DNA from: a virus
Strand: one strand, 5' to 3'
DNA length: 64,000 nt
Virus record (IMG/VR): IMGVR_UViG_3300046477_000550
A program made the position numbers and the translations under genes. Below are positions 48,860 through 64,000 of this stretch, in pieces (positions within the stretch are counted from its first letter, which is position 1; each line of letters opens with the position of its first letter). The notes under the pieces were generated by a model. The model did not search any database. It saw nothing but the letters and a program-made list of their open reading frames with translations, and was not told the origin of the DNA.

Positions 48860-48863
48860 TACG

Positions 48864-49628: not shown

Positions 49629-49652
49629 GGCCACCTCCTCAGGGAACGCGAA

Positions 49653-49682: not shown

Positions 49683-49709
49683 CTTTAGAGCATGATCGGC
49701 GTGGCCCAA

Positions 49710-49738
49710 ATCTGACACAGATTGGCCTATTAGGTCAA
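49710..49738 (-). promoter_or_regulatory. candidate promoter TTGACC-N17-TCAGAT
   Basis: Lies in the lowest-GC patch of this region. The -35 element overlaps the stop codon of the upstream gene. Confidence 0.35.
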
Positions 49739-50448
49739 GCGGCTGCCACCGACTTGTACTGCTGGGCCAACTTGCCGGTGTGTTCCAGATACTCCCCAGG
49801 CGTGAGCAGTGTCTGACAGTTGATGTTCCGGCACTCGATGTAGTCGTCGCCGTCGGTGCGGAAAAGGGTGAGCAACTCGCAGCGCGGGCACGGGATTCGG
49901 TGGTGTTCCAGGCGCGCGTCCCGGCGGGTGAAGCGCTGCGCTGCGCGGTGCCAACTGCCGATCTGCGCGGCCGGATTGCCGGACAGCCGGTCGTGGACTT
50001 CGGCGGCGAGCGGGTGCTCGACGAGCGCCCACGTGAGCTGCGCGGTCAGGAACCGTGTGACACCGGTGACGTCGCCGCCCTCCGTGCCGCGCCCAGGCCG
50101 AACGCGGAAGCGTCGCAGCTCGCGGATGTCGTCCTCCAACTCCAGCAAGCCGCCCACGATGTGGTCGATGAGGATCCGTGAGGCTTGTCCGGGCCACGCC
50201 GGGATTGAGGTGCGGCCGATCATGCCGGTCGTCTTCGCGGCCGTGCCGTACACGGCTTCCAGGCTGACGGCGACGACGAGTTCGGGGAGTTCGGCGAGCT
50301 GGCTGTGGGCGCGGTTCGTGCAGCGGTCGCAGTGGACGGGCTGGCCCCAGGTGACGGGGACGTCGTGTTCGGCGCCGGTGGCGGCGAGTTGGGCTTCGGC
50401 CTTACGCCAGCCGTTGTTGCACGACCCCGGGCACGGCGCTGGGGTCAC
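49735..50448 (-). CDS. hypothetical protein with two zinc-ribbon motifs
   Basis: 237 aa from GTG 50448 (GTGA overlap), with CDRC and CPRC...CRNINC motifs. Confidence 0.7.
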   Translation of the reverse strand: MTPAPCPGSCNNGWRKAEAQLAATGAEHDVPVTWGQPVHCDRCTNRAHSQLAELPELVVAVSLEAVYGTAAKTTGMIGRTSIPAWPGQASRILIDHIVGGLLELEDDIRELRRFRVRPGRGTEGGDVTGVTRFLTAQLTWALVEHPLAAEVHDRLSGNPAAQIGSWHRAAQRFTRRDARLEHHRIPCPRCELLTLFRTDGDDYIECRNINCQTLLTPGEYLEHTGKLAQQYKSVAAA

Positions 50449-50600
50449 CGTCCACTCTCCATGCCTGCGGCAAGAACGGCTATGACGATCTGCATGGCCT
50501 GCGCCTCGCTGAATCCGGCGCCGACGTAGGAGAGGAACACTTCGTGGAGTTGGGCGGCGCCTGCGGCGAGTTCGGTGAGCGGGTCCTGGGGATCGGGCAT
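50445..50600 (-). CDS. hypothetical small protein
   Basis: 51 aa starting MPDPQDPLTEL. Confidence 0.5.
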   Translation of the reverse strand: MPDPQDPLTELAAGAAQLHEVFLSYVGAGFSEAQAMQIVIAVLAAGMESGR

Positions 50601-50677
50601 GACGCGTCTCCCGGTGTGCGTGAGGGTTCTGCACCCCATTGTGCACACTCAGCGTGACAACGGCGGGGTTCCGTGAC

Positions 50678-51022
50678 TCACAGCACCGGCGCGTAGCGCC
50701 CGGCCCTGAGTTCCTCGCGCAGCATGAACTCCCGCAGCCACGCCGGGTTCCGGCGGCTCTCGACCTGAAGTACCCGGGAGACCTGCGCGCGGTTGCATGG
50801 GTCGGTGAGGGCGCGGGCGATCTCCTCGTCGGCCAGTGCGGGTTCGGGCCGGCTGATCCATCCCCAGGCTGTGGGTTCGGTTTCGGTGTGGGTGTCGGCG
50901 TTGTCCAGCCACCAGTCGAGGCAGTCATGGCAGACGTGCAGGGTGGTTGCGGCCGGGCTGGTGGTCAGCCATGCGACGGCCGGACCGCAGGCGCCGAGCT
51001 GCATGTAGCAACGGGCGGTCAT
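50678..51022 (-). CDS. hypothetical protein
   Basis: 114-aa ORF. Confidence 0.6.
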   Translation of the reverse strand: MTARCYMQLGACGPAVAWLTTSPAATTLHVCHDCLDWWLDNADTHTETEPTAWGWISRPEPALADEEIARALTDPCNRAQVSRVLQVESRRNPAWLREFMLREELRAGRYAPVL

Positions 51023-51354
51023 CGCGTCTCCCCCTCGGTCGGGAGGTGCCGTCCGCTCGGGTCCGAGTAGAGGATCTCAACGCGCCCGTCTGGCGTGACG
51101 TGGGTGAACGAGTTCGCGGCGGCGTGTTCGTAGGTGGCACACCACATGTCGATCTCGCTGCGGCGCATGCTGTGGGGGAAGTCGACGACTCCGGCCCGCT
51201 CGCCGTTGCTTGGCCCGAAAAATCGCCGCAGGCCGATGGCGAGTTCGGCGGCCGTGCCGGGCTTCGGCTCGATGCCGAACAGCTCATACTCCAGGACGGC
51301 GATCGCGAGCCGGTCCGCGCGGCGCGGGGGCGGCTTCCGCCACGGCCACTTCAC
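51019..51354 (-). CDS. hypothetical protein
   Basis: GTG at 51354 overlaps the upstream stop (GTGA). Confidence 0.6.
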   Translation of the reverse strand: MKWPWRKPPPRRADRLAIAVLEYELFGIEPKPGTAAELAIGLRRFFGPSNGERAGVVDFPHSMRRSEIDMWCATYEHAAANSFTHVTPDGRVEILYSDPSGRHLPTEGETR

Positions 51355-51806
51355 GTCGTCTCCCCGGCCTGGGTGTTGCTCTCGGCGGGCGCCTGTCCGC
51401 CTCCGGAGCAGGCGATGAGGAGCGGCGTGCTGTAGGGCCACATGTGCGGCGGGATCATGCCGTCCGTCAAGCGGATGGATTCGCCGCATCCCGTACAGCG
51501 GCCGAAGGCTTCAGGAGGCCTCTCAGCGGTACCAGTGGCGGCCTCCCGAGCCTCGGTGCGCACCAGCCACGGGGCCATCGGGGTCGCGGCGATCTCGGTG
51601 ATGTAGACGGCTCGCGCCGGGCAGTCGGGGCAGGCGACGTCGAGCACCGGCCTGCCGGGCACGGCGAACGTCCGCAGTACCCAGCGTCGGGGCCCGGTCT
51701 TCCGCCGTTCACGGACGCGCCGGGACGGGGACTGGCGGCGCGCGCTGGTCTGGCTCGGGTGCAGGCAGAGGGCGACGCCGTCGCCGAGCGGGGTGTACGT
51801 GGTCAT
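51351..51806 (-). CDS. hypothetical Cys-rich protein
   Basis: 151 aa with CPDCP...CTGCG. Confidence 0.65.
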   Translation of the reverse strand: MTTYTPLGDGVALCLHPSQTSARRQSPSRRVRERRKTGPRRWVLRTFAVPGRPVLDVACPDCPARAVYITEIAATPMAPWLVRTEAREAATGTAERPPEAFGRCTGCGESIRLTDGMIPPHMWPYSTPLLIACSGGGQAPAESNTQAGETT

Positions 51807-52021
51807 CGGGGCACTTCCGGGTCGATGAGGTCGGCAGCGTAGTCCGCGCCGTCCGTGGCGTGTGCCGGGTAGTCGGCGTTCCGAATCTGCTCGGCAAGCT
51901 CGCGGGCCACGGCGTCGTAAACACGCTGAGCCGTACCGTCACCGCGCTGCCAATACTCTCCGGCAAGGTCTTCGATCTGATCCAGTGCGGTGGTCGTATC
52001 GCGGGGATCTCGGTAGACCAT
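51803..52021 (-). CDS. hypothetical small protein
   Basis: 72 aa starting MVYRDPRD. Start abuts the upstream stop (TGATG). Confidence 0.55.
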   Translation of the reverse strand: MVYRDPRDTTTALDQIEDLAGEYWQRGDGTAQRVYDAVARELAEQIRNADYPAHATDGADYAADLIDPEVPR

Positions 52022-52452
52022 CAGCTCGTCGCCTCCCCGGTCCAGCCCCAGCCCTCGGCGAGGTTGCTGACGTGGCGTTCGACACGCTCGTCTCGTCCGC
52101 AGGTGCAGTCCTGGTTGCCGTCGCGGTCTCCGTTGTCGGCGGCGGCGAGACAGCTGTACCAGGAGTCTTCGCACACGTCGTGCTTCTCGGCGAGCAGGTC
52201 GCCGAGCATCTTTCGGTCGGCGGCGATCCGGCGCAGGACGGCAGCCGGGGAGTTGGCGACCACGAAGGCGCCGATCTCCGGGTGGTAGATGGTCGCAAGC
52301 GTGTTGCCGTTGTTCAGGTCGCGGATCTCGTGGACCAGCTCGTCGTACTCCCAGTGCGGCGACCAGGCGCGTTCTGCTGCCGCTTCCGCGTCGCGCTGGG
52401 CCGCGTCCATGGCCTCCCGCAGCCGCACCACCATGCGGTCTGTGTCCGTCAT
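52021..52452 (-). CDS. hypothetical protein
   Basis: 143-aa ORF with balanced composition. Confidence 0.7.
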   Translation of the reverse strand: MTDTDRMVVRLREAMDAAQRDAEAAAERAWSPHWEYDELVHEIRDLNNGNTLATIYHPEIGAFVVANSPAAVLRRIAADRKMLGDLLAEKHDVCEDSWYSCLAAADNGDRDGNQDCTCGRDERVERHVSNLAEGWGWTGEATS

Positions 52453-52566
52453 CGTCGCTTCACCGCCAAGACAAAGGACGGCGCGTCAGAAGCCAGATCG
52501 TGCTGCAGATGAGGCCACACACGCAGAACCCGGTCAGAGCCCCGAACCACCAGTCCGTCGTCACCG

Positions 52567-52854
52567 CTACCTCCCCAGCGTGCACAGGACGTGCAGCGCG
52601 GCGCGGAAGTCGTCGTCGGTTGGCGTGCCGCCCGCACGGTCGCCCTGCACCTCGTGCACGGCCTCGATGGCGCGCTCACGGCCGATACCGACGGCAGCCG
52701 CGCGCACAAGGTAGGAGTCCGCTGCCACTGCGAGCTTCAACGTCTCCGTGACGGCTGACGCAAGCGGGGCCAGCATCAGACCCGCGCTCGCGGCGGCAAG
52801 GCGCGGAAGGTCGTCGATCACATGCGGACGCTGGTCCGCTGGCAACTTGCTCAC
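52567..52854 (-). CDS. hypothetical protein
   Basis: GTG at 52854 overlaps the upstream stop (GTGA). Confidence 0.55.
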   Translation of the reverse strand: MSKLPADQRPHVIDDLPRLAAASAGLMLAPLASAVTETLKLAVAADSYLVRAAAVGIGRERAIEAVHEVQGDRAGGTPTDDDFRAALHVLCTLGR

Positions 52855-53027
52855 CGTTCCGCCTCCAGAATCGTGCCGTCCTCGGCGATGACGCACGCCT
52901 TGCGGAACAGCCGCGTGTGCTTGTGCCGCACGACGGCATGCGCGCACCCGGTATTCGGGCACCACGGGTCGGGAGGATTCCCGGCCCCGTACATCAGCGC
53001 GTCGTCGACAGCATCCCAGCCGCTCAT
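52851..53027 (-). CDS. hypothetical small protein
   Basis: 58 aa starting MSGWDAVDD, with an ATGA overlap. Confidence 0.5.
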   Translation of the reverse strand: MSGWDAVDDALMYGAGNPPDPWCPNTGCAHAVVRHKHTRLFRKACVIAEDGTILEAER

Positions 53028-53221
53028 CCCTGCTCCGCCCACTCGAACCGGATTCCGGCCGCGCGCATCTCCGGCGGCAGCAGCCCCGTCAACTCGTCGG
53101 CCATCGCCGGAAGCGCCTCGTCGAGCCACGCCCGGTACGCGGCCTCACGGGCGCGACCCTCCCGGCACGCCTCGTCGAGGGTGGCGAGGGAGTCGTTCAG
53201 CGAGTCGGGGTAGGCGGTCAC
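53024..53221 (-). CDS. hypothetical small protein
   Basis: 65 aa, with a GTGA overlap. Confidence 0.5.
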   Translation of the reverse strand: MTAYPDSLNDSLATLDEACREGRAREAAYRAWLDEALPAMADELTGLLPPEMRAAGIRFEWAEQG

Positions 53222-53562
53222 GTCTGCTCCCGAGGCGGGACATCCCCGTACTTCCGCTGCCATTCGTCGTCTTGGACGCCGAGCCCGTACTCGTGCATGG
53301 TGCGGTCGCAGACGACATCGGTGTACGCCTTGTCGATCTGCTCAATGGTGCGCCCCATGGTGCGGGCGATCCTTTCCGGGTCGCTGGGCCACTCCGTGTG
53401 CTGCGCCAGGTAGTCGAAGTCCTTCAGGCGCCGCTCGTAGTGGTACTGAAAGTCGGCGCACTGCCTGGCGAGTGCCTGGACGAGCTGGGCGAAGTGGTGC
53501 GCAGGATCGCCCTCCCTGTAGAGGCGGCCGGATGCTGGGTGGGAGTAGCCGGAATCGCTCAT
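53218..53562 (-). CDS. hypothetical protein
   Basis: 114-aa ORF. Confidence 0.7.
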   Translation of the reverse strand: MSDSGYSHPASGRLYREGDPAHHFAQLVQALARQCADFQYHYERRLKDFDYLAQHTEWPSDPERIARTMGRTIEQIDKAYTDVVCDRTMHEYGLGVQDDEWQRKYGDVPPREQT

Positions 53563-53586
53563 GCCGTCAGTATGCAGCGCGGCCGG

Positions 53587-54093
53587 TCACGCCCCGTTGG
53601 GATTCCTCGGTGGGCAGCACATCGGCCACGGGCAGTCGGCTGCGATGTGGTAGTCGCCACGGCACAGGCAGTCCGTACAGCCGCCGAGCAGGCCACGCCG
53701 CCCGAGTCGCCGCGCCTTCGCCAGGAACAGGCGCTCCGGCAGCAGGCCCACCTCTACTTCGAGGGCCTCCTGCACCTTCCACCGGAGCCGCCACACAGAC
53801 CCGTTCGTCGACCCGTCGTAGCCAGGCGTCCGCCGAACCGCGTCCAAGAACACGTCATCGGCGATGTCCTTGCACTGCATGCGACGGCCGTCGACCATGC
53901 GGATCGACGGCGGCTCCGGCTGCGGCTCGGGCGCAGGAACATCCGGACGCGGAAGCCACAACGCGCCCGACCGCCAGAAGACCGACATCGGCACCGGGTC
54001 CACGACGACAGGGTCCATGACCGCCAGTATGCGACCGCCCCGCGACGCCCCGCTCAGCAAAACGGCCCCACCCGAATCGGGCAGGGCCGTCAC
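53587..54093 (-). CDS. hypothetical Cys-rich protein
   Basis: 168 aa ending CTDCLCRGDYHIAADCPWPMCC. Start may be internal. Confidence 0.6.
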   Translation of the reverse strand: MTALPDSGGAVLLSGASRGGRILAVMDPVVVDPVPMSVFWRSGALWLPRPDVPAPEPQPEPPSIRMVDGRRMQCKDIADDVFLDAVRRTPGYDGSTNGSVWRLRWKVQEALEVEVGLLPERLFLAKARRLGRRGLLGGCTDCLCRGDYHIAADCPWPMCCPPRNPNGA

Positions 54094-54103
54094 ATCGCCG
54101 TCG

Positions 54104-54694
54104 CTACTCCCAGCCGCCGGTGAAGTTGGAACTCAGCTGGGCGTCGCAGATGTTGTAGCCACCCGACGCGTGCCCCGTCTTCGTCTTCCCGCCGATCGTG
54201 ATCGAGCAGTGGATGTCGCCCGACCCTTGCAACTGGGCGTTGACGTTGAAGTACATCGCACCCTTGGCCAACGGCAGCGTCGCAGTGAACTTGCCGTCCT
54301 TGAACGCGCCCTTGCGGGTGTCCGAGTCGGAGCCGTAGCCGATGTCGAGCGGCCCGAGCGCGCCGGCCGGGGCGGTACCCCACACCTTGAAGGTGACGAC
54401 ATCGGCCGGCTTGCTGGTCTTCGCGCCGCCGACCTTCGCCTTGCCGCTGCCGCTGCCGCTGGCGCTGTGGGTTGCGGTGGTGGTACTCGGGCTGCTGCTG
54501 GTCTTGTTGCTGCTGCCGCCGCTGTTGACGGCTGCGGCGATGACGCCGATGGCGACGAGCAGTCCGACGATGCCGAGGCATCCGAACCCGATGATTTTCC
54601 CGGCGCTGCGGCCTTTCGGCGGCGGGGGCGGGGCGCCCCATGCGGGTTGTTGCGGTCCGCCCCATTGCGGCTGCTGCGGATGCTGCTGGCTCAT
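54104..54694 (-). CDS. membrane-anchored secreted protein (Gln/Pro-rich N-terminus, one TM, beta domain)
   Basis: 196 aa starting MSQQHPQQ, with a TM segment IIGFGCLGIVGLLVAIGVIAAAV. Confidence 0.7.
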   Translation of the reverse strand: MSQQHPQQPQWGGPQQPAWGAPPPPPKGRSAGKIIGFGCLGIVGLLVAIGVIAAAVNSGGSSNKTSSSPSTTTATHSASGSGSGKAKVGGAKTSKPADVVTFKVWGTAPAGALGPLDIGYGSDSDTRKGAFKDGKFTATLPLAKGAMYFNVNAQLQGSGDIHCSITIGGKTKTGHASGGYNICDAQLSSNFTGGWE

Positions 54695-54831
54695 GCCGTC
54701 CCCCGTTGATGCTGTCCGTCCGAGGTGGGCGAATGTAGTGGATGTGAGCGCGGCGTAAAGGTGATGCGAGCGACCTGTGACACGAACGGGACGAACGGAT
54801 GTGGGGCGCACTGACGGCCAGCGCTAGCCGA

Positions 54832-55038
54832 CTACAGCTCCGGCGTCTCCACGTGCGCGGCTTGGATCTCGATTTCGACCCCGAGCCGCTGAAGCTTGCT
54901 GCCCCAGGAGACGGAGACCGTGACGGGCTCGCTGCCGTTGGCGCCGGACCGCATGGCGTCCTGGACGAACGCGGCCAGCTCGTCGAGGGTCATGACCTGC
55001 CCCTTGGGGGCCTTGTGCTCGATCTTTTTGAGGGACAT
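54832..55038 (-). CDS. hypothetical small protein
   Basis: 68 aa, with AGGAGG 9 nt upstream of ATG 55038. Confidence 0.6.
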   Translation of the reverse strand: MSLKKIEHKAPKGQVMTLDELAAFVQDAMRSGANGSEPVTVSVSWGSKLQRLGVEIEIQAAHVETPEL

Positions 55039-55043
55039 GCGGC

Positions 55044-55295
55044 TCATCCTCCTGCACGTAGGGCGCCAACTGGCGCTTCCGATGATGCGACAGCCCGCGC
55101 GCATCCCCGGCATTCGCCGACCGCCCCGACGACGTACCCGCCGGCAAGCAGCCCGCTCTTCCCGCAGGCGGCGTGCAGCACCCGCCACCACTCCTGCTCC
55201 TCGGGCCGGCGGACGTGGTGCCCGGTGCGGCCGTTCTCGAACCGGACGCCCGGGATCGGGAACTCGTCGGCCAGCGTCGGAGCGGGGGCAGTCAC
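55044..55295 (-). CDS. hypothetical protein
   Basis: 83 aa, with a GTGA overlap. Confidence 0.5.
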   Translation of the reverse strand: MTAPAPTLADEFPIPGVRFENGRTGHHVRRPEEQEWWRVLHAACGKSGLLAGGYVVGAVGECRGCARAVASSEAPVGALRAGG

Positions 55296-55648
55296 CACTG
55301 ACCTCCCATGTGGGAGAGACCGCTGGTCGCGCGGTCGAGGGCGACCCCGGCTTTCGCGAGGAGTTGGCGGGCTTCGTTCAACTCCTGCCGGGCCTTCTCC
55401 GCCTCTTCGCGCACGTCGCTGCCGTTGTCCATGCGGATGGTGTCGGCGTCCCGCATGGCGCGGAGTTCGCCCCAGATCTGTTCGATGGCTTGCGGCATGC
55501 CCCACACGGCCTGCTTGATCTCATTGATGGTGCTGTAGATCTGGGAGGGCTCCTCGAAGGCGCCGCCGCCGATGGTGCGGTGGTTGAGGGCCCGGGTCTC
55601 CTCGGCCACGCTTCGGGCGATGGCGGCGGGTTCGCGGTTCAGGTCCAT
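55292..55648 (-). CDS. hypothetical helical protein
   Basis: 118-aa ORF. Confidence 0.7.
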   Translation of the reverse strand: MDLNREPAAIARSVAEETRALNHRTIGGGAFEEPSQIYSTINEIKQAVWGMPQAIEQIWGELRAMRDADTIRMDNGSDVREEAEKARQELNEARQLLAKAGVALDRATSGLSHMGGQW

Positions 55649-55655
55649 GAGTTCC

Positions 55656-55829
55656 TCAGCAGTAGTAGTGATCGGTCGGGTCGTCGGGCTCGTCGTCCCA
55701 GTCGCGGTCGGCCCAGTGCGCGTCGTCGTACCGGGCGGCTTCGGCCGGGGTTTCGTCCCAGTCCCGCGCCTCGGGTTCGGTCGGCGGCTCCGGGACGGGC
55801 GCCGGGGCGGGCTCGGGCGGGGCGGTCAC
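55656..55829 (-). CDS. hypothetical acidic 57-aa protein
   Basis: GTG overlaps the upstream stop and GC3 is very high. Too short for the ORF track. Confidence 0.5.
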   Translation of the reverse strand: MTAPPEPAPAPVPEPPTEPEARDWDETPAEAARYDDAHWADRDWDDEPDDPTDHYYC

Positions 55830-56368
55830 TGAACGTCCTCTGCTTCGGCGGGGTTGGTGACGGTGACGCCGTCGCGGGTGCGGGACAGAACGCGGTCGTA
55901 GGTGCGCTTGGGGTCGTCCCGGCCGCCTCCGCCGCCGTCGAGGGTGAGCGTCTTCTTGTTGACGCGCTTCACGCGGTAGGTGTCGGCGTGAGTCTCAAAG
56001 GTGCGGACGGTGACGATGTCGCCGACCTGGAAGTCGGCGGGTTCCCATGGGCGGGACCGGGTGGCGACGGTGTCGGCTATCGCGGCCCGCGCGTCGGCGT
56101 CCGCCTTCGCCCACTTCGCTTTCGCCTGGGCGCGTTCGGCGGCCTTGTAGGCGTCGATGGCACGCTCGGAGGCGGCGTCGGCACGGTCCTTGTCGCGCCG
56201 GGCGCTGCGGTAGGAGTGGTGACCGCGAAGGAGGGGCTGACCACCAGCGAACCGGCCGTACATGCCGCGCGCGCGCTCACTCCGCTGTTGCGCTTCGACT
56301 GAGAGTCGGTCGGCCTGCTGCTGGAGTTGTTCTGCTTTGAGCTGCTTGGGCGTCTTCTCTTCGGCCAT
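55826..56368 (-). CDS. DUF3560-like protein (recollection; common on actinobacterial plasmids and ICEs)
   Basis: AGGAGA then ATG 56368. Has GHHSYRSARRDKDRA and a C-terminal GDIVTV...YRVKRVNKKTLTL. Confidence 0.6.
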   Translation of the reverse strand: MAEEKTPKQLKAEQLQQQADRLSVEAQQRSERARGMYGRFAGGQPLLRGHHSYRSARRDKDRADAASERAIDAYKAAERAQAKAKWAKADADARAAIADTVATRSRPWEPADFQVGDIVTVRTFETHADTYRVKRVNKKTLTLDGGGGGRDDPKRTYDRVLSRTRDGVTVTNPAEAEDVQ

Positions 56369-56379
56369 CAGCGGTTCTC

Positions 56380-56655
56380 CTATCGGTTGAGGCCGGGCAG
56401 GTCGCCCCAGCCGTGTACGAGGCCGGGGTTGCAGGCGGCCAAGGTCTTGTTCGCGGTACAGAGTCGGGCGTGCAGCCGTATCGCCGCTTCGGCGCGCACC
56501 TCGGCGGTGCAGGCGGCCAGCGTCCGCCCGGTGAGCAGCCTGCCGCAGAGCCCGGCCTCGTCGACGGCTTCGAGCACGTGGGCGGGGAGTTGCCGGGCGG
56601 CGAGGTCGGCGACCGCATCCGGGACGGGGATGGTGCGCGGCGGGCGGGCGATCAC
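56380..56655 (-). CDS. hypothetical protein
   Basis: 91-aa ORF. Confidence 0.55.
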   Translation of the reverse strand: MIARPPRTIPVPDAVADLAARQLPAHVLEAVDEAGLCGRLLTGRTLAACTAEVRAEAAIRLHARLCTANKTLAACNPGLVHGWGDLPGLNR

Positions 56656-57098
56656 GGCTTGGTCTCCGCTCGCTCCAGCCAGAAACCGTCACTGTGCTCG
56701 TCGCGGTAGCGGCGGCCAATCTCCCAGCCGTTCAGGCGGGCCAGGTCCTGCCACGTCCACCGCAGCCCAAGGGATGCCCAGCCGTCCTCGGGCCGGTTCA
56801 TCAGGTACAGCCGACCGTCATGCGGGTGGACGCGGACCAGGATGCGGTTGTCGAGTGACTGCAAGTCCAGCGGTGCCGCCTGGAAGATCGGGCACGTTTC
56901 GCACTTTCCGTCGGCGATGCACGGCCCGTATCCGCCGTACCCGGCCCGTCGGGTGTCCTGCGACTCGACGAGGTGGCTGTAGTCGCGGGGACGCAGCGCG
57001 CACTGGTCGCCCGCGAGAGATCCGAGCGCGATGCGGTTCCAGCCCTGCCCGTCGGGGCCGCCGTTGCGGTGGCTGGGCGCCGGAAGGTAGATCGGCAT
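56652..57098 (-). CDS. hypothetical protein
   Basis: 148-aa ORF. Confidence 0.7.
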   Translation of the reverse strand: MPIYLPAPSHRNGGPDGQGWNRIALGSLAGDQCALRPRDYSHLVESQDTRRAGYGGYGPCIADGKCETCPIFQAAPLDLQSLDNRILVRVHPHDGRLYLMNRPEDGWASLGLRWTWQDLARLNGWEIGRRYRDEHSDGFWLERAETKP

Positions 57099-57262
57099 CA
57101 GGGGGTTCCGCCCTCGTCGAGGAGTTGGTCGATAAGGGCGCGGGCGAGTTCGGCGTTTCCGTCGTAGTAGATGGTCAGAGCGTGCTCAATGACGGGGCGG
57201 ACGCTCGGGGCGACATCGGGGCGGCTCTGCTCGCGGTGCTTGTTGTCGATGGTGTCGGCCAT
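57098..57262 (-). CDS. hypothetical small protein
   Basis: 54 aa starting MADTIDNKH. Confidence 0.5.
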   Translation of the reverse strand: MADTIDNKHREQSRPDVAPSVRPVIEHALTIYYDGNAELARALIDQLLDEGGTP

Positions 57263-57330
57263 GGCGATCTCCTCGGCGTCGGCGGCAATTCGGTGGTGGG
57301 GCCCGGCCTCGAAAGGCCGGGCGGGGCGGG

Positions 57331-57651
57331 TCAGAAGTTCGGGTCCCGCCGGGGGCACTTGGCGTGGTGCTCGTCGGTGACCCACTTGACCGACGTGACG
57401 GGGGCGCCACAGTCGGTGCACTCGGCGGGGAAGATGGCGATGGTGTCGAGGAACTCGGGGTCGGCGATCCGGACGATCCGCATGAGGAGTCCGCTGCGGT
57501 CGGTGGCGTGCCACTCGTCGATGTCTTGACCGGTGATCTGGGCCTGCTCGATGCCGATCTCGGCGTCTTCGACGGTGTCGTATCCCCAGAAGCTGCCGTA
57601 GTTGTCGAAGTTGACGACGTTCGTCCAGTCGATGCGGGCCTTGGTCTTCAT
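57331..57651 (-). CDS. hypothetical protein, first gene of the 57.6-to-49.7 kb operon
   Basis: 106 aa, GGGGAG then ATG, with a C-terminal CTDCG...HHAKC. Confidence 0.7.
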   Translation of the reverse strand: MKTKARIDWTNVVNFDNYGSFWGYDTVEDAEIGIEQAQITGQDIDEWHATDRSGLLMRIVRIADPEFLDTIAIFPAECTDCGAPVTSVKWVTDEHHAKCPRRDPNF

Positions 57652-57693
57652 GTGAATCTCCCCTGGCTTGCCGTCCTTGGCGATGACTCCATA

Positions 57694-57793
57694 GTTGCAT
57701 CCTCATGTTGCATCGTCAAGAGGTCTCGCAAGGTGACAACTGGAAGATGCATCGCTAGGGTGCCTAGTGAAGATGCGACAGGACGTGGCATCC
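57694..57793. promoter_or_regulatory. divergent promoter region with an array of GATGCATC-type half-sites
   Basis: GTTGCATC at 57694 and 57707, palindromic GATGCATC at 57746, GATGCGAC at 57772, GTGGCATCC at 57785. AT-richer than the flanks. Confidence 0.55.
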
Positions 57794-57801
57794 TTATGGG
57801 C

Positions 57802-58089
57802 ATGACCGCGACCGAGAAGAAGCAGCAGGCAGCGCGCGAAAGGCTCGACGAGCTCGCCTCGGCGTTCGTCAAGGCCGAGGAGCAGCTGGAGACCGCGCGT
57901 ACCGCCCTGAACGAGGGCATCGTCGACGTCCTCAAGGCCCGGACCCTGGGCCCATCGGAGGTCACGCGCCACGTCCCCTACGAGCGCCAGCACGTCGGAC
58001 GCATCTCCAAGGCGGCAGGCATCCCACCCCTGCGCGAACGGACCGTCGTCAGCGCCAAAAGGGCTGCGCCAGAGCCGCCCCCCGAGTAG
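57802..58089 (+). CDS. putative regulator (helical, basic C-terminus)
   Basis: 95 aa starting MTATEKKQQAARERL. The only plus-strand gene at this divergent node. No clear HTH recognised. Confidence 0.6.
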   Translation: MTATEKKQQAARERLDELASAFVKAEEQLETARTALNEGIVDVLKARTLGPSEVTRHVPYERQHVGRISKAAGIPPLRERTVVSAKRAAPEPPPE

Positions 58090-58142
58090 CCCGCTTCCCG
58101 ATTCCCGCCCCGCTCCCCCACCGCCCGCGCCACACTGCCGAC

Positions 58143-58307
58143 ATGACGCTCAGGTTCACGGTCCAGGGCGACGACGAGGCGGAGACGGCCGAGGGCTACC
58201 AGCTGCTGCTGTCGCTGGGCCTCACGCCCCACATGCCGCCGAAATGCCTCACCGACGGGCGATGGATGGCGCGCCGTACCCGATACGACGAAAGCCCCGG
58301 CCGATGA
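58143..58307 (+). CDS. hypothetical 54-aa protein
   Basis: ATG at 58143 with high GC3. Too short for the ORF track. Confidence 0.45.
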   Translation: MTLRFTVQGDDEAETAEGYQLLLSLGLTPHMPPKCLTDGRWMARRTRYDESPGR

Positions 58308-58317
58308 TGGTCGGGGC
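58294..58317. terminator. hairpin between convergent genes
   Basis: GCCCCGGCC-gatgat-GGTCGGGGC. Confidence 0.45.
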
Positions 58318-58332
58318 CCTGCCGTTGTCTGA

Positions 58333-58578
58333 TCAGGCGCCCGCCGCTCCCTTCGCTGCGACCGCGTCGGCCCGCCAGTTGGCGAGGGACTCGGCGCCGT
58401 AGGTGAGGGCGAGAATCCCGGCGAGGGCGGTGAGCGCCGCCGGGACCGCGGCGACAATCTCCGGCACGCCAACCGCCATCAGGGCGACGGTCACGGCGTA
58501 TCCGGCCGACAGCGACGGGGCGAACACGGCGACCGCGATGAACAGTCGGGCGATCGGGCCTAGCTCGGGATGGAACAT
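58333..58578 (-). CDS. small multi-TM membrane protein (Spd-like by position)
   Basis: 81 aa, almost entirely hydrophobic. Confidence 0.6.
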   Translation of the reverse strand: MFHPELGPIARLFIAVAVFAPSLSAGYAVTVALMAVGVPEIVAAVPAALTALAGILALTYGAESLANWRADAVAAKGAAGA

Positions 58579-58594
58579 GGCGGGGCTCCTAGGG

Positions 58595-59047
58595 CTAGTT
58601 GTTGACGTTGGTCTTGCCGAACCACTTCTGGTGGACGTGGACTTCCTTGCGGACGGAGGCCGGCCCGCGGGAGCCGAGGTTGGCGGCGAGGAGGACCAAG
58701 CCGAGGAGGATGGCGAATCCGCTGGTGCCCATGAGGGCGATACCGGCGAACATCTGGCCGGCGCCGAAGCCGACTCCAGCGCCGGCGGCACCGATGCCGA
58801 AGCCGGTGGCGAGGATCTTTTGGGCCTGCGGGTCGACGAGCGGAATAGGCGTGAGGTCCCGAACCGGCTGCGGCTGCATGGCGGCCGGGACCTGCGATTT
58901 CCGCATGGGCACCATCTGGCCGTAGGCGTCCGGCACGTAGACGACGGGGTCACGGTCGTCGTACAGCTCGATTTCGGCGGACTGGTACTGCCGCTGCCCG
59001 TCGGGGGCGGCGTAGCGCTGGTACCGCTCAGGCAGCGGACTGGGCAT
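58595..59047 (-). CDS. membrane protein (Spd-like by position)
   Basis: 150 aa with a Gly-rich TM region GFGIGAAGAGVGFGAGQMFAGIALMGTSGFAILLGLVLL. Confidence 0.65.
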   Translation of the reverse strand: MPSPLPERYQRYAAPDGQRQYQSAEIELYDDRDPVVYVPDAYGQMVPMRKSQVPAAMQPQPVRDLTPIPLVDPQAQKILATGFGIGAAGAGVGFGAGQMFAGIALMGTSGFAILLGLVLLAANLGSRGPASVRKEVHVHQKWFGKTNVNN

Positions 59048-59078
59048 CAGGTCGGGTCTCCTTCGGGCCGGGGTGGGT

Positions 59079-59696
59079 TCAGTTCCAGGGGGCGGCGTTG
59101 CGCTGGCCGCGAATCCAGGCGGTGAGGCGGGTGTCGTCGACGGTGGTTATGCCGACGCGTTCGGCGAACTCGCGGGCGTCTTTGGTGAAGTGGGAGGTGG
59201 TGACGACGGCCGCCCTCTGGCAGCGGTGGATGTCGCGGTAGGTGCCGTTGACGCACTGCACGTCTCCGGATTTGACGTTGTTGCCGATGGCGTACCGCTT
59301 GGCCTGAATGAGGATCCGGTGCTGTGACCTGCTCCAGGGCTGCCACCAGATCGCGTCGGGGGTGGTGGCGAGGACGTCGGCGGCAAGGTCTCCGGCGCCG
59401 CCGACGACCTGCACGTCGGTGCATCCGTCGCGGCGGCACAGGTCGGCGATGTAGTGCTCGAACTGGCCGGCCGACAGACGGTGGGGGTCGGTGGCGCCGG
59501 ATAGGCGTGGCCGTCGTCGCAGTAGAGATCGCAGCCGCTTTCGGAATGCGACCGCGGGGACGAGCACGAGCGCGCCGACCGTGAGGGTGATGACGAGGTG
59601 GTCGGCGACCCACTGTGCGGCGACGATCGCGAGCACGACGAAGACGACGACGGGCCACAGGCTGGTGCGGGTCGCGTGGCGGTTGGCTGCGGACAT
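59079..59696 (-). CDS. membrane-anchored Mrr-like restriction endonuclease-fold protein
   Basis: Two N-terminal TM segments, then GAGDLAADVL...ILIQAKRY (D...QxK of the PD-(D/E)xK fold). Confidence 0.65.
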   Translation of the reverse strand: MSAANRHATRTSLWPVVVFVVLAIVAAQWVADHLVITLTVGALVLVPAVAFRKRLRSLLRRRPRLSGATDPHRLSAGQFEHYIADLCRRDGCTDVQVVGGAGDLAADVLATTPDAIWWQPWSRSQHRILIQAKRYAIGNNVKSGDVQCVNGTYRDIHRCQRAAVVTTSHFTKDAREFAERVGITTVDDTRLTAWIRGQRNAAPWN

Positions 59697-59707
59697 GGTG
59701 GGCCCCT

Positions 59708-61942
59708 TCAGTGGTTGACGAGCTGGTAGGTGCCGCGACTGCCGGCGGGTTCGACGTGTCCGGCCTGGTGGAGGTCACCCATGACGTTGTTGATGCTGCC
59801 GGGGGCGACGTCGGGCATCCGCTTGCGGACGTCCCTGAGGGCCATGGGTCCGTCGGCGAGGAGGTCGAGGATGCGGTCCTTGATGCTGCCGGCGGAGGGC
59901 TCGTCGTCGTCGTCGAGGAAGTCGCGGTAGGCCGCGTCGCCGTCCTCAGCCCCGGAGTCGAGGTCCCCGGCGAGGAGCGCTTCGGCGTGGGGTAGCCAGC
60001 GGGCGTAGGCATCCCGGAAGACGCGGTCCTCTTCCGGGGTGAGGGTGGGCGTGGGCGCCGATTCCATGAGGGCGATGAGACCCGGGTAGGTCTTGTCCAC
60101 CTTGCGGGCCTTGAAGACCCGGGAGAGGAAGAGGACGCCGCCCTGGATGATGTTGGCCATGCCTGCGGTGATCGGACCGTTCTTTGCCTCCTCGCCGCTG
60201 AAGGCGGCGTCGATGTCGCTGCCGGTTTTGAAGTAGCGCTGGATCGGGTCGAGGGTGACGCCGGGCGGGAGTACTCCGTCGGTGGCCATGTGCTGGGTTG
60301 TGCTGCTGTTTGTCCTGCCCAGCCAGACCGTGCCGTTTTTCGCGTTGGCGCGGATCTTGTCCTTGTCGCCGAGTTCAGCCAAGTGGATGTTCTGGGCGGC
60401 GAAGCGGATGCCCTTGCCGAGCTTGCGGCCGGTTGCCTGGGCATCGCTGACGAGGCCGGACACCCAGTTGCGGAAGGCGCGGGGGACGTCTGCATCGGAG
60501 GACAGGATCCGGTTGAGCTCGTCGAAGGTGCCGTTGACCAGGGCCCACGGTTTGCCGATCTCGAAGGAGCCCCAGCCGTTGGCGGCGGAGATCTTCTCCC
60601 GGTAGGCGCCGAGTTCGTTGAAGGCGGCGAGGGTCGCGCCGGTGGCTGCGATGCCTTTGCCGAAGTGGCAGACGCGGCCGTCGGCCTCAGGCAGGGACAT
60701 GCCGTTCTGGGCGTCGGCGACGATGGATACGACGCCGGAGAGCCGTTCGGCGACGAGCACGGTGAGCAGGGCTACCGACTTGCCGGCTCCCATGGCGCCG
60801 ACGAAAAGGTCGGTGACCGCACCCATCTCGGGGTCGTACAGCGCCATGCGGGCGGGGCGGCCGTCGTGACGGACGCCGATCTGAATGGTGCCGTCGGTAC
60901 GCATGGTGAGGTCTTCGGCGGTGGCTTCGCGGACCTCCATCAGCGGATGGTTCTTGTAGATGGAGATGATGCCGTCGCCGAGGCCATCGGTTTCGACCAT
61001 GACCAGCGACTTGTCCTTGTAGCCGATGGCGCGGGTGATCTGCGTCTGGTTCAGCTGGATCATCTGACCGTCGGGAGCGGTGACGCGCAGAGCGGTGCGG
61101 TTGAGTTCGGTCTTGTAGCCGGTGAGGTGCATGCCAGCGGCGCCCCCGTTGGGGCGGGCCAGCCGCTCGTAGAAGAGGCGCTCGGCCGGGTTCTGCTGCG
61201 CCTGCTCGACGGCGTCGAGGGTGGGCCGGGCGGTGAGCAGCTTGCGTCCGGGGCCGGAGCCTTTGATGAGGCTCAATGTGACGGTGCCGGGCGGCAGGTC
61301 GAAGACGGCGGCCAGCGCGGTCGCGTTGAGGTCGGGGACGGCTTCACCGGCTGGGGCGACGACGATGCCCCAGAAGTCGGGGTGCCGGGCGTCGTACTGG
61401 GTGACGGTGGTCAGCAGCGTGCTGCTGGTGGACCGGGCGTCGGCCCACTGCCGCGTCCGGTGCGCGCCGTAGGTGGCGAGCGGTGCGGCCTCCAGGGCGG
61501 GGATTTCCGCCGAAGCGTTCGGGAGTGCATCGGGCATCAGGTTGGTGGAGTGGGTGAGCGGCACGGTGGCCGCCATGAGCGCGCCCCATCCGGCGGGCAG
61601 CACGTACTCCCACCAGGGGGCGCCGGGGTGGAGCAGGTCGGCGAGGTAGACGAGGGCGCCGGTCAGCGGCGGCACGACACGCTGGGCGGCGCGCAGGAAC
61701 CCTGAGTGGCCTTCCGGGTGCTCCCACTTGCCGTACAGCCAGGCGAACGAGCCGATGGCGACACCGGCGGCGCCGAGGTGGGCGGGCCACCAGCCGTCAT
61801 GCTGGGGGGTGACGGTGATGCCGAGGGTGGCCGCACCGTAGAGGAGGCGCTCGAAGCGGGCACGGCGCCGGATGCTGCGGGCGGGAACGAGCCGCGGGCC
61901 GTCGTGTACGGCCAGGTCGGGCGTCTTGTCGGTGACGGCCAC
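59708..61942 (-). CDS. traB: TraB-type FtsK/SpoIIIE dsDNA translocase
   Basis: 744 aa with N-terminal TM segments, Walker A VGAMGAGKS and a C-terminal winged-helix-like tail (MALRDVRKRMPDVAPGSINNVMGDLHQAGHV). Confidence 0.8.
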   Translation of the reverse strand: MAVTDKTPDLAVHDGPRLVPARSIRRRARFERLLYGAATLGITVTPQHDGWWPAHLGAAGVAIGSFAWLYGKWEHPEGHSGFLRAAQRVVPPLTGALVYLADLLHPGAPWWEYVLPAGWGALMAATVPLTHSTNLMPDALPNASAEIPALEAAPLATYGAHRTRQWADARSTSSTLLTTVTQYDARHPDFWGIVVAPAGEAVPDLNATALAAVFDLPPGTVTLSLIKGSGPGRKLLTARPTLDAVEQAQQNPAERLFYERLARPNGGAAGMHLTGYKTELNRTALRVTAPDGQMIQLNQTQITRAIGYKDKSLVMVETDGLGDGIISIYKNHPLMEVREATAEDLTMRTDGTIQIGVRHDGRPARMALYDPEMGAVTDLFVGAMGAGKSVALLTVLVAERLSGVVSIVADAQNGMSLPEADGRVCHFGKGIAATGATLAAFNELGAYREKISAANGWGSFEIGKPWALVNGTFDELNRILSSDADVPRAFRNWVSGLVSDAQATGRKLGKGIRFAAQNIHLAELGDKDKIRANAKNGTVWLGRTNSSTTQHMATDGVLPPGVTLDPIQRYFKTGSDIDAAFSGEEAKNGPITAGMANIIQGGVLFLSRVFKARKVDKTYPGLIALMESAPTPTLTPEEDRVFRDAYARWLPHAEALLAGDLDSGAEDGDAAYRDFLDDDDEPSAGSIKDRILDLLADGPMALRDVRKRMPDVAPGSINNVMGDLHQAGHVEPAGSRGTYQLVNH

Positions 61943-61983
61943 GGTGGTGTCCTCCTTCAGGTCAGGTCAGGTCAGGGTGCGGG

Positions 61984-62496
61984 TCAGTAGACTTCGTTGA
62001 ACTGGGCTTTCGGCTGCTTTACGCCGCCGGGCAGGGCCTTGACGGTTTCGTGGATGCCGCCGTACTCGGACTGGTGGGCGTCACGGACGCCGTTGGCGTT
62101 GGCTTCCATGCCGTCGGCGGCGTTGGCAACTTCGCCGGAGGCTTCGGCAACCCGGTCGAAGGCGGCGGCGACCTCAAGAGCCTGGGCCTGGAAGCGGGCG
62201 TCGACGCCGGCCTGGGCGAGGTGTCCGGCGAGGCGTCGGGCACGCTGCGCGTCGTGGTGCATGCGCGCCTTGAGGAGGTGCAGCTGCTCCTTGAGGATGG
62301 CGGCCGCGGCGGCGAGGGCCATGATGCGCAGGGCGAGGGTGACGAAGTTGAGGATGCCGCTGATGGCGCCTCCCCAGCTCATCCGCTGGGGCTGGTTGTT
62401 TCCAGTGGCGGCCGGGAGGTTGTCGCTGTCTGCGGCGGCAGCTTCGGCGCCGGTCTGGACGGAAGTGGGTTCGATCGCGTTACTGTCGTCGCTCAT
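61984..62496 (-). CDS. hypothetical protein with a central TM segment
   Basis: 170 aa starting MSDDSNAIEP. The ORF-track upstream extension is Arg-rich junk. Confidence 0.65.
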   Translation of the reverse strand: MSDDSNAIEPTSVQTGAEAAAADSDNLPAATGNNQPQRMSWGGAISGILNFVTLALRIMALAAAAAILKEQLHLLKARMHHDAQRARRLAGHLAQAGVDARFQAQALEVAAAFDRVAEASGEVANAADGMEANANGVRDAHQSEYGGIHETVKALPGGVKQPKAQFNEVY

Positions 62497-62507
62497 CGTC
62501 GTCTGCC

Positions 62508-64000
62508 TCAGGTCTGGTTGTGGATCGGCGCGGAGGGGGTGGTGAGGCCGGCGTCGGCGGTGGCCTGGGTGATGGGCCGGTAGGTGTCGTTGAGGTCGTT
62601 GTCTGCGGTCTCGGACTGTTCTGCTGCTTCGAGGGAGGAGACCTGCATTTCGTCGGACATGCGGGCGACCAGGTCCATGGACTCGGCCATGCGGGCCATC
62701 GCGCCGGAGAACAGCGGGCCGATGAGGTTGTGGTTGACGGCGAGGTCTTCGGCGAACAGGGCGAGGATGTCGCGGAGTTTGCGGCCGCGGTCGGCGAGCT
62801 TGGCGGCCTGGTCGTGGGTTTTGAATCCGTCGTCCTTGAAGTCGCCGTATTCGTCGAGGGCGTCGTCGAGGTTGATTTCGGTGGCGTGTTGGGCGTCCAT
62901 GTGGCGGGCGGCGGTGATGATGCCGTGGCCGGTGCGGGCGGCCTGGTTGCGGGCCTTCGCGATGCGGCGGTCGGGCTTGGCGGGGGGCATGGCGATGGGC
63001 TCCTTGGGGCGGGTGGTGCCGGGGCGGGGCGGGTTCACGGTCGGTGCGGTGTCGAGGGCGGCCGGACCGTTCTTGGGCAGCGCCGGAGTGCCGGTGCCGA
63101 GCGCGTCGGGTTCCCACCGTTTGGCCTGCGCGCCCGGATAGTCGTCGCGTTCGACGGTGATGGTGGCGGCTGCCTGGCCGGCGGCCTGGCCTGCGTTCTG
63201 GAAGGGGCTGCGGCGCGTCCGGCCCGCCGATCCGCCAGGGGCTCCGGCGCTGCCGGTGCCGGTGTTGGTGCCGGTCGGGCCCGTGGTGCCGCCGAAGCAG
63301 CCGCCGTTCTTCCGGGTGCGGGCGCGGGCGTTCGCCCACCACGCGCCGGCCTTCCGTCCGGCATTCCTGAACCGTTTGTTCTTCCGCCGACTGCCGCTTC
63401 CCGTCGCGCCGGGGGCCGCGCCTGGCTTCTTCGGCTTGTTCAGGTTGACCTTCGGCGTACCGCCGTTGCCCGTCTTCGACTTTCCGTTCTTCGGGGCGGA
63501 CCAGATGGGCGGGGTGACCGTTTGACGGCGGCGCTTCAGCCGTTTGCGGGCGGCCCGGTGTGCAGCCTTCCGCAGCGCCTGGGCCAGCGTGGTGCGTCCG
63601 GCGGCCTGCGTGTTGCTCTTCCCTGCGGCGGCCCCCGGAGTGGCGCTGCCGGGCCGGCCCGGAGCCTTCGTCAGGTTGACCTTGGCGGGCTGCCCGGGGG
63701 CGCCCGTCGGGTTCTTCGGCGCGTTCTTCTGGCTCTTCTGGCCGCTGCCCCACAGGGCGGGGGTGGCTCCGCCCTGCTTCTGCCGCTTCTTCCAGCGGCG
63801 CGCCGCGGCCTTCTGGGTGTCCTTCTTCAGTGCGGCGCCCAGCCCGGTCCTGCCCGAGCCGCTGTCGCTGCCGCCGTCAAGCTGCTTGCGGCGCTGCTTG
63901 TCCAGGCCGGCCTTCGATCCGGCCTGCGAGTTATGGAGCGGACTCTTCTTCGGCTTCGGCCCGACGGTGGTGTCGGGCTTCTTCGGCTTCGGGCCTGCAC
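62508..64000 (-). CDS. large basic low-complexity repeat protein (N-terminus beyond window edge)
   Basis: The frame is open from 62508 to 64000. It has Lys/Arg/Gly/Pro-rich repeats (GRT-x-L-xx-AL-[KR]K...KRxxQ...W) and a helical acidic C-terminal domain. An internal GTG at 63038 is an alternative start. Confidence 0.5.
   Translation of the reverse strand, partial: AGPKPKKPDTTVGPKPKKSPLHNSQAGSKAGLDKQRRKQLDGGSDSGSGRTGLGAALKKDTQKAAARRWKKRQKQGGATPALWGSGQKSQKNAPKNPTGAPGQPAKVNLTKAPGRPGSATPGAAAGKSNTQAAGRTTLAQALRKAAHRAARKRLKRRRQTVTPPIWSAPKNGKSKTGNGGTPKVNLNKPKKPGAAPGATGSGSRRKNKRFRNAGRKAGAWWANARARTRKNGGCFGGTTGPTGTNTGTGSAGAPGGSAGRTRRSPFQNAGQAAGQAAATITVERDDYPGAQAKRWEPDALGTGTPALPKNGPAALDTAPTVNPPRPGTTRPKEPIAMPPAKPDRRIAKARNQAARTGHGIITAARHMDAQHATEINLDDALDEYGDFKDDGFKTHDQAAKLADRGRKLRDILALFAEDLAVNHNLIGPLFSGAMARMAESMDLVARMSDEMQVSSLEAAEQSETADNDLNDTYRPITQATADAGLTTPSAPIHNQT

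Follow-up and report, generated by a model that had tools for sequence, protein, structure and literature searches.

An SCP2-type transfer operon on a temperate siphovirus-like element: comparative evidence for two possible routes of spread

We analyzed a 64,000-nt stretch of DNA, the IMG/VR virus record IMGVR_UViG_3300046477_000550 (the window; positions past its end are called window-equivalent), which carries a tailed-phage module and, at its right end, a block of genes resembling the transfer region of the plasmid SCP2. Judged by homology and gene order, this block (58333-64000) appears to be the downstream half of an SCP2-type transfer operon of about 13 kb. We consider it probable that the operon belongs to a temperate siphovirus-like element of at least 85 kb, for which virions and cell-to-cell DNA translocation would be two routes of spread. 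An earlier interpretation made from the letters alone (the sequence-only reading) had suggested that virion-mediated and TraB-mediated transfer may be combined in one element. Comparative evidence supports the combination, but not the TraB type of the translocase, nor membership of the element in the family of the plasmid-phage pZL12.

The transfer block and its homology to SCP2

The genes at the right end of the window are as follows (aa, amino acids; TM, transmembrane).

63998-62508, minus strand: basic protein rich in Gly, Pro, Lys and Arg, last 496 codons of 739 aa (open reading frame and relatives)
62496-61984, minus strand: small SCP2 TraB-type protein, 170 aa, one TM helix (homology to SCP2 traB)
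61942-59708, minus strand: SCP2 TraA-type major transfer protein, 744 aa (SCP2 homology and fold)
59696-59079, minus strand: Mrr or type IV restriction-type nuclease, 205 aa, two TM helices (Pfam Mrr_cat)
59047-58595, minus strand: hydrophobic protein, 150 aa (hydropathy; no family)
58578-58333, minus strand: hydrophobic protein, 81 aa, two or three TM segments (hydropathy)
57796-58307, plus strand: two small genes of the phage backbone, 97 and 54 aa (phrog_34713, 6e-19)

The G+C content of the window is about 69%, and scoring of third-position G+C and codon usage placed almost every gene on the minus strand. The block genes are intact, all on this strand and strongly biased toward Streptomyces-type codons; the sequence-only reading was thus right that all of them are present and that they share the strand of the phage genes. 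The window end cuts the block. Two further assemblies, JGI contig L093/L095 and Logan contig L002, match positions 49708-64000 of the window at 100% identity and carry the operon on to about 71.65 kb window-equivalent, about 7.6 kb past the window, where it stops at a divergent HTH_31 regulator gene. In these extensions we found a 73-aa gene whose product shares 29% identity with SCP2.24c, a 182-aa gene with a precomputed Pfam assignment of 'TraA-like', a 366-aa protein at 65.9-67.0 kb window-equivalent with a precomputed PF27079 HTH_SpdB_C match, and about 15 small genes.

In SCP2 the gene order is SCP2.24c, SCP2.23c (annotated as 'glycine-rich protein'), traB and traX/traA. The 739-, 170- and 744-aa proteins are collinear with SCP2.23c, traB and traX/traA and have the same orientation. 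The 739-aa protein, whose full length was read from L002 and L093 (gene end at window-equivalent 64727), has an isoelectric point of 11.3, one TM helix and an acidic C-terminal domain of about 260 aa homologous to SCP2.23c (41% identity, E 2e-45). The 170-aa protein, with a TM helix at residues 48-66, is 43% identical to SCP2 TraB, and its 68%-identical orthologue in the plasmid NZ_CP107756.1 is annotated by PGAP as 'conjugal transfer protein TraB'. These two proteins are the huge basic protein and the TM protein which had been noticed upstream of the translocase. Homologues of traB and SCP2.23c adjoin TraA in at least 25 of 28 genome loci. Altogether, four consecutive genes follow the SCP2 order (29% identity for the one outside the window, then 41%, 43% and 33-50%), and TraA has the same domain plan. 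SCP2 differs in being a 31-kb plasmid without phage genes, in having its translocase annotated as two open reading frames, traX and traA, and in having neither the TM-anchored Mrr nuclease nor the pair of small hydrophobic genes; the TraA of the window also falls in a separate, phage-linked clade. Transfer of both pZL12 and SCP2 requires the major tra gene together with two neighboring ones (PMC3583192).

The two plus-strand genes at 57796-58307 are convergent with the block, and minus-strand phage genes resume beyond them. Because this pair splits the block from the early phage genes, the tra block is a transcription unit of its own, and the pair seems to mark the edge of a 'tra slot' in the phage backbone. 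A scan of the convergent junction for sigma-70 promoters and intrinsic terminators gave nothing, as expected for Streptomyces. The 81-aa gene is the last of the block and the downstream limit of the conserved cassette: in the relative L025 the 81-aa protein is 97% identical, and similarity to the window ends just past its gene.

A separate transcription unit would also be expected if the two modules were accidental neighbors, that is, if a fragment of a plasmid or of an actinomycete integrative and conjugative element (AICE) with SCP2-type tra genes had been inserted in or beside an integrated prophage. The parts would then be functionally independent, and the tra genes would serve only their original element or be decaying. 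We regard this as unlikely. Every gene of the block is intact with full codon bias, and inside the window the block has neither an integrase nor an att repeat or host gene at its flanks. The further evidence on this point comes from relatives and is given below.

The 744-aa translocase

The 744-aa protein has a Walker A motif, GAMGAGKS, at residue 382 and a Walker B DE at 474-475; both are invariant in 19 homologues of 46-76% identity. It is 33% identical to the SCP2 proteins over residues 28-256 and 50% over residues 250-730 (E 9e-140). A tblastn search of plasmids returned 141 records, nearly all from Streptomyces and SCP2 among them, where the match spans traX and traA at 44.5% overall identity. 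The SCP2 record (AL645771.1) annotates traA as 'major plasmid transfer protein'. The same search of 50,697 phage records, which include pZL12, gave no match.

No family was found for this protein in Pfam (PF01580 included), NCBIfam, PHROGs, PADLOC or a PDB sequence-profile search. An AlphaFold2 model (mean predicted local distance difference test score, pLDDT, 70) was matched by Foldseek to the FtsK motor (6T8G/2IUS) and to TcpA, a conjugation coupling protein, with E of about 1e-8 and a TM-score of about 0.5 on the target. The C-terminal residues, about 687-741, were modeled with pLDDT 82-90 and match winged-helix structures, and there is a weak profile match of the C terminus to the RPA32 winged helix. 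Some relatives have an added FtsK_gamma domain. A plasmid protein 30% identical to the 744-aa protein (E 2e-66) ends in this domain, which is why PGAP calls it FtsK. The N-terminal 130 residues are helical, with four predicted helices in residues 21-126, but weakly hydrophobic (Kyte-Doolittle maximum of only about 1.0), so that a membrane anchor is a plausible prediction and no more.

By homology and by the model, then, the 744-aa protein is an SCP2 TraA-type major transfer protein with a P-loop motor of FtsK fold and a winged helix. The sequence-only reading had called it a membrane-anchored FtsK/SpoIIIE ATPase with a winged-helix tail. The gene, the motor fold, the winged helix and the homology to SCP2 TraA stand; the anchor, given the weak hydropathy, is no more than plausible, and no sequence profile supports FtsK/SpoIIIE. 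Its label 'TraB translocase' has to be replaced, since the translocase is of the SCP2 TraA type rather than the canonical pSVH1/pIJ101 TraB, and the TraB of the SCP2 type is the 170-aa gene.

In the canonical systems a single FtsK-like protein pumps double-stranded DNA (dsDNA) after binding repeated clt motifs (PMC3583192). The window protein resembles pSVH1 TraB, pIJ101 Tra and pWTY27 TraA in joining an FtsK-like motor to a C-terminal winged helix. It differs from them in having no Pfam FtsK_SpoIIIE match and no clt repeats found with it, and the SCP2 type needs adjacent genes as well (PMC3583192).

Accessory genes downstream of TraA

The 205-aa protein matches Pfam Mrr_cat (2e-22) and PADLOC mREase_IV (8e-9) and has two strong TM helices, at residues 13-31 and 33-51, as expected for the TM-anchored Mrr-like nuclease that it had been taken for; it is 95% identical in L025. 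An Mrr-type nuclease is kept downstream of TraA in many relatives and was not detected adjoining SCP2 traA. These comparisons suggest that the TM-anchored nuclease is a conserved accessory gene of phage-linked tra cassettes. It recurs with such cassettes in L008, L009, L011, L013, L015, L017 and L025, and is also found with those of L028-L031, L034, L036, L037 and L092.

The 150-aa protein has a hydrophobic C-terminal half rich in Gly and Ala, and its homologues follow TraA in L015, L025, L030, L034 and L036; it is a candidate spread or pore accessory protein. The 150- and 81-aa proteins were described as Spd-like. Their genes and their hydrophobicity are as described, but neither protein matched Pfam, NCBIfam, PHROGs or PADLOC or belongs to a known SpdA or SpdB family. 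The operon does contain an SpdB_C-type protein, the 366-aa one outside the window.

Another family common to Streptomyces transfer regions and these phages is DUF6197. It occurs twice in the left arm of the window (3690-4067 and 4529-4843, both from precomputed Pfam hits in L006), in SCP2 just downstream of traA (SCP2.19c, in L022) and at 3576-4085 of L083, beside a 702-aa translocase-like gene.

The phage module

Matches to PHROGs identified packaging, head, tail and lysis genes of a tailed phage in the window, together with the following features.

20654-44469, minus strand: morphogenesis and lysis module of a complete tailed phage (PHROGs and collinearity with pAmyja1)
42947-44469, minus strand: TerL, in two frames (PHROGs)
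41406-42950, minus strand: portal (PHROGs)
39857-41323, minus strand: MuF/2H-phosphoesterase fusion (PHROGs)
37610-39451, minus strand: protease (PHROGs)
36106-37482, minus strand: major capsid protein of SU10 type, PF17236 in relatives (PHROGs)
33015-34178, minus strand: tail tube (PHROGs)
28430-31705, minus strand: tape measure (PHROGs)
22291-23115, minus strand: endolysin (PHROGs)
21898-22272, minus strand: holin (PHROGs)
44486-57651, minus strand: early and middle region, from terminase to block (PHROGs and synteny)
7946-8257, minus strand: excisionase-like gene (lysogeny module, 7946-10964)
8723-9277, plus strand: helix-turn-helix regulator (lysogeny module)
9663-10964, plus strand: tyrosine integrase (lysogeny module)
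16011-17027, minus strand: second tyrosine recombinase (profile match)

A 1149-aa minor tail protein, a collagen-like fiber, RecT and a RecE-like exonuclease are also encoded. The block is thus contiguous with a phage whose morphogenesis gene set is complete, as had been claimed, with the caveat of a -1 frameshift in TerL. The early region holds small genes (several with PHROG matches), a MerR/Xis-like gene, a DNA-binding protein, DUF3560, DUF6221 and two tRNAs. In the interval of about 14 kb between terminase and block we recognized no host gene and no att junction, and the interval is syntenic in related IMG/VR contigs. The claim that no att site, tRNA or host gene separates the two modules therefore stands except for the tRNAs. 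These are tRNA-Gly(ccc) at 48650-48722 and tRNA-Ile(gat) at 48863-48937, both on the minus strand in an intergenic stretch; L085 has a tRNA at the equivalent place. Because synteny crosses them in relatives, the two tRNAs are phage-internal and not an integration junction.

TerL is split across two frames exactly at its Walker A motif (44299-44322, minus strand). The split site, GGT GGG GGA AAA GTA GGG CGC TGA, holds the -1 slippery heptamer G_GGA_AAA; after a -1 shift ...GGAAGGGKSRALTAH... is read again and the protein is full-length. The out-of-frame form is kept in the independent IMG/VR contigs L055, L058 and L063 (74-82% identical over the aligned stretch); TerL is in frame in L054, L061, L064 and L066 and is a single gene in pAmyja1. 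The split may reflect either programmed frameshifting or slippage, or a recurrent homopolymer error.

Relatives of the cassette and the pZL12/pSLE1 family

With an E limit of 0.001, a protein search with the 744-aa query gave 209 homologues, of which almost all come from Streptomyces. Among the best 120 of the 209, there were 55 clusters with a longest contig above 50 kb, and in 33 of them this contig was 86-99 kb long. The closest complete record, NZ_CP107756.1, is a circular 93.7-kb plasmid with ParAB, a DciA-family protein, ERF and an integrase, in which the cassette lies directly upstream of the TerS, TerL, portal and capsid genes. The cassette has this same place upstream of the packaging and head genes in 8 of 10 IMG/VR loci and in 7 of 12 species-representative genome loci with TraA at least 59% identical. 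In SCP2-like loci (TraA 43-49%), no phage genes were found within 10 kb in any case. A neighbor-joining tree placed the phage-linked TraA proteins in one clade apart from SCP2-like TraA. That the whole clade is phage-linked argues against an insertion of unrelated tra genes.

The structural genes of NZ_CP107756.1 share 63-85% identity with their counterparts in pSLE1, for which its authors report high homology and synteny with pZL12 (PMC4487206). This type of TerL is present in pZL12 itself and also in 34 plasmids of Streptomyces or Kitasatospora; of these plasmids, 33 measure 84.8-94.1 kb. In pZL12 (GQ919031, 90,435 bp) the order is 73c (membrane protein), 72c, 71c (FtsK/SpoIIIE-like, 725 aa) and 70c, followed by the opposite-strand pZL12.69 and then by TerS and TerL. 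pZL12 reportedly replicates as a plasmid, transfers by conjugation and forms infectious virions (Zhong et al. are said to have found this in 2010). The transfer locus was characterized experimentally (PMC3583192, citing the earlier pZL12 study). The naming of pZL12 as a precedent was sound: FtsK-like pZL12.71c and its neighbors lie directly upstream of the terminase.

The contigs of about 90 kb raised the idea that the window itself is a member of the pZL12 family. This was rejected, since the structural genes are unrelated. The window and pZL12/pSLE1 share only weak matches of lysis genes, tail-fiber genes and one small regulator, and their translocases are 25% identical. The family (pZL12/phiZL12, pSLE1, NZ_CP107756.1 and about 30 other Streptomyces plasmids of 85-94 kb) resembles the window in being made of large Streptomyces elements whose complete tailed-phage module shares its strand with an FtsK-like transfer locus, and some members carry the same SCP2-type cassette at 60-68% identity. 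It differs in structural genes without detectable similarity, in a cassette that abuts the terminase where the window has 14 kb of early genes between them, and in having ParAB and DciA, which were not seen in the window element. The translocase of pZL12 itself, pZL12.71c, is of a different type, and tblastn of the window TraA gave no match to it. On these comparisons the window would work like a pZL12-type plasmid-phage without belonging to the pZL12 family proper.

The 'tra slot' and exchange of cassettes between backbones

The packaging-head-tail module of the window is collinear with that of the circular Amycolatopsis japonica plasmid pAmyja1 (NZ_CP008954.1, 92.5 kb) at identities of 25-75% (TerL 73%, portal 59%, capsid 63%). 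This lineage of phage can thus exist as a circular plasmid. pAmyja1 differs in its early genes and carries nothing homologous to the tra cassette. Collinearity of the module extends to 19 IMG/VR contigs, in none of which two scans for TraA gave a match.

This TraA type and this capsid type were found together nowhere else in PLSDB, IMG/VR or protein-cluster lists. The closest capsid relative with a long upstream stretch, L054 (30.7 kb), has no TraA match, and NZ_CP107756.1 shares with the window only the tra genes, the endolysin and one other gene. All three observations would fit a chance insertion of the tra genes. The locus itself argues against it. Ten IMG/VR contigs have a homologue of the early DNA-binding gene at 49735-50448, and several of them share terminase and portal as well. 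In those with enough upstream sequence, genes for other large P-loop proteins take the same position, with the same orientation. L085 has a 593-aa TM protein (PF01580 FtsK_SpoIIIE, 2e-12) adjoining a 309-aa TM protein, with a homologue of the boundary gene at 58143-58307 just beside it; homologues of this 54-aa boundary gene adjoin different FtsK-like cassettes in L083 and L085. L089 has a DUF2637 membrane protein (7e-34) and a 718-aa P-loop protein, L083 a 702-aa relative of the P-loop proteins of L089 and L085, and L086 a 693-aa protein with GAMGAGKT. In L092 a 715-aa protein, 29% identical to pZL12.71c (E 1e-37), is followed by an Mrr homologue (59% identity). BLASTP links among these P-loop proteins are weak but form one connected web; an hhalign comparison of the TraA profile with the P-loop proteins of L083 and L085 was not significant. 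The presence of other FtsK-like cassettes at the same locus in backbone relatives suggests a selected slot rather than a chance insertion.

In Streptomyces sp. NPDC008150 and LUP47B the cassette goes with a third structural type, with Terminase_6N and Phage_capsid_4. Within the TraA clade the three backbones are mixed together, so the cassette has passed from one phage backbone to another. A pZL12-type translocase in a window-type backbone, and an SCP2-type one in a pZL12-type backbone, suggest that the combination was selected and that the window is a mosaic case. This swap is the strongest argument for a selected combination of phage and translocase. Co-occurrence of the two parts among relatives therefore gave a divided answer: this TraA and this capsid meet only here, but backbone relatives carry other cassettes, and elsewhere the TraA clade goes with phages. 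Phage and transfer cassette are therefore linked in general although the pairing in the window is mosaic, and by this comparison transfer cassettes look like a regular, exchangeable part of these phages and not an accidental neighbor. Structural backbones and translocase types, three or more of each, may have been shuffled among these elements.

We propose tentatively, and with less confidence than the reading of the window itself, that FtsK-like dsDNA-transfer cassettes belong, as a regular and interchangeable part, to several unrelated lineages of large temperate phages and phage-plasmids of Streptomyces. If this is true, a sizeable and largely unrecognized class of actinobacterial viruses routinely has two transmission routes, virions and a contact-dependent one in which the prophage or plasmid genome is pumped from hypha to hypha and within hyphae. 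Reviews set conjugative plasmids against phage-plasmids as distinct elements whose strategies differ in cost, host range and limits on size (PMC12282955); having both routes would let an element escape this trade-off between conjugation and virus. A dual route has been known to be possible since pZL12 (2010). Dozens of Streptomyces replicons of 86-99 kb with such cassettes, at least three phage backbones and the exchange of cassettes between backbones suggest that it is widespread and not a curiosity. What appears to be new is a second, unrelated phage lineage with a transfer cassette, and the swapping of cassettes among lineages; the kind of element has been known since 2010. The window offers this second lineage for testing the idea, together with a conserved membrane-anchored Mrr-type nuclease.

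Assembly, plasmid or prophage state, and mode of transfer

About 85 kb of the element are known, from -8.2 to 76.7 kb window-equivalent: L006 adds 8.2 kb on the left side of the window and L093/L095 add 12.7 kb on the right, with no overlap between the ends of these pieces. All that is known of the element comes from metagenome or read-archive assemblies, where phage and tra block might have been joined by mis-assembly. We consider such a chimera hardly credible. The 66.6-kb JGI contig and the 20.5-kb Logan contig match the window without a difference across the junction, which is thus identical in three assemblies. On the window-equivalent scale the JGI contig covers 10 to 76.7 kb and would thus hold both modules, and L025 keeps phage-like small genes downstream of the same cassette.

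As to its state, the element is no more than a candidate phage-plasmid, as the sequence-only reading had called it: no rep or par gene was found in the window and its extensions of about 21 kb. Besides an excisionase, the element encodes a tyrosine integrase and a second recombinase, and the presence of integrase and excisionase suggests integration. No host gene was found in the 85 kb, and a metagenome scan to close the circle or find rep and par gave nothing. Near-identical TraA proteins occur on JGI contigs of 96.7 and 102.6 kb. Capsid relatives are found on contigs or plasmids of 92-98 kb and also on contigs of 170 kb to 9 Mb, so that the lineage seems to include plasmid and integrated forms. 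Some relatives of the structural module are circular plasmids; that of Kitasatospora sp. CMC57 (97.9 kb) is labeled a plasmid by its source. AICEs are about 9-24 kb long and are not known to have virion genes. Those such as pSAM2 and SLP1 resemble the window element in combining a tyrosine integrase and excisionase with an FtsK-like dsDNA translocase and small membrane proteins, but the integrase of the window lies about 50 kb from the tra genes, inside the phage. In what is described of PhiNon1 of Nonomuraea gerenzanensis (PMC5431353), the phage is both a self-replicating circle and integrated at a tRNA gene, which indicates that an integrase and a plasmid state can coexist. The likeness is by description, and transfer genes are not among the features reported in that account.

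If the preferred reading of virions plus translocation holds, the element as circular dsDNA, either a plasmid prophage or an excised copy, would be engaged by a TraA ring at the hyphal membrane. The winged helix of TraA would bind a cis site (clt), and unprocessed dsDNA would be pumped into the neighboring hypha. The adjacent membrane proteins would help with pore formation and with spread through septa. The TM-anchored Mrr-like nuclease would be an accessory, possibly for exclusion or defense. Virions would provide the other route; for pZL12 both routes are reported to have been demonstrated by experiment.

Several findings weigh against this picture. With no rep or par gene found and integrase and excisionase present, a circular substrate for transfer is an assumption. 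Direct and inverted repeats, tandem repeats and clustered 7-9-mers were searched in 57.3-64 kb and in the rest of the window. The sequence-only reading had proposed a check for clt-like TraB-recognition repeats; neither the block and its surroundings nor the remainder of the window gave a convincing cluster, and the window does not take in the whole operon. The N terminus of TraA is weakly hydrophobic. The pairing of this TraA with this capsid type, found nowhere else, appears to be recent. TerL is complete only with a -1 frameshift, so that production of virions is not guaranteed.

The missing par gene could also be taken to mean that the pump has a role within the phage life cycle, moving or segregating the prophage or plasmid genome within the mycelium, across cross-walls or into spore compartments, in place of a partition system. 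Intramycelial spread is an established function of Streptomyces Tra/Spd systems, and the cassette is kept across three unrelated phage backbones. Relatives with the same cassette carry ParAB, though, and the homologous SCP2 genes are transfer genes (PMC3583192). We find it improbable that such a role is the whole explanation; it and transfer from strain to strain are not exclusive.

Other features of the window

A gene for a Ro60/TROVE protein with a VWA domain lies at 18474-20147 on the minus strand (Pfam TROVE 1.8e-14, phrog_850). It is preceded by a tRNA-like element, called tRNA-Ser(gct) by ARAGORN at 20251-20324 (minus strand), which is below the threshold of the Rfam tRNA model. The Rfam model YrlA (Y RNA-like) gave a sub-threshold match at 20199-20308 (25.7 bits, E 0.003). 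The stretch 18474-20324 is probably a phage-borne module of Ro and a Y-RNA-like element.

About 1 kb at 46253-47218 has no confident gene, and short tandem repeats occur at 46121, 46409 and 46901. The adjoining 189-aa gene (47697-48266) has a homologue of 593 aa in L084. The region and its neighbor may be a decayed or rearranged fiber-like gene. Finally, TCTCCCA or its complement occurs four times in 290 bp at 10934-11220, in the last 30 bp of the integrase gene and just downstream; the copies are candidate arm-type or attP-associated repeats.

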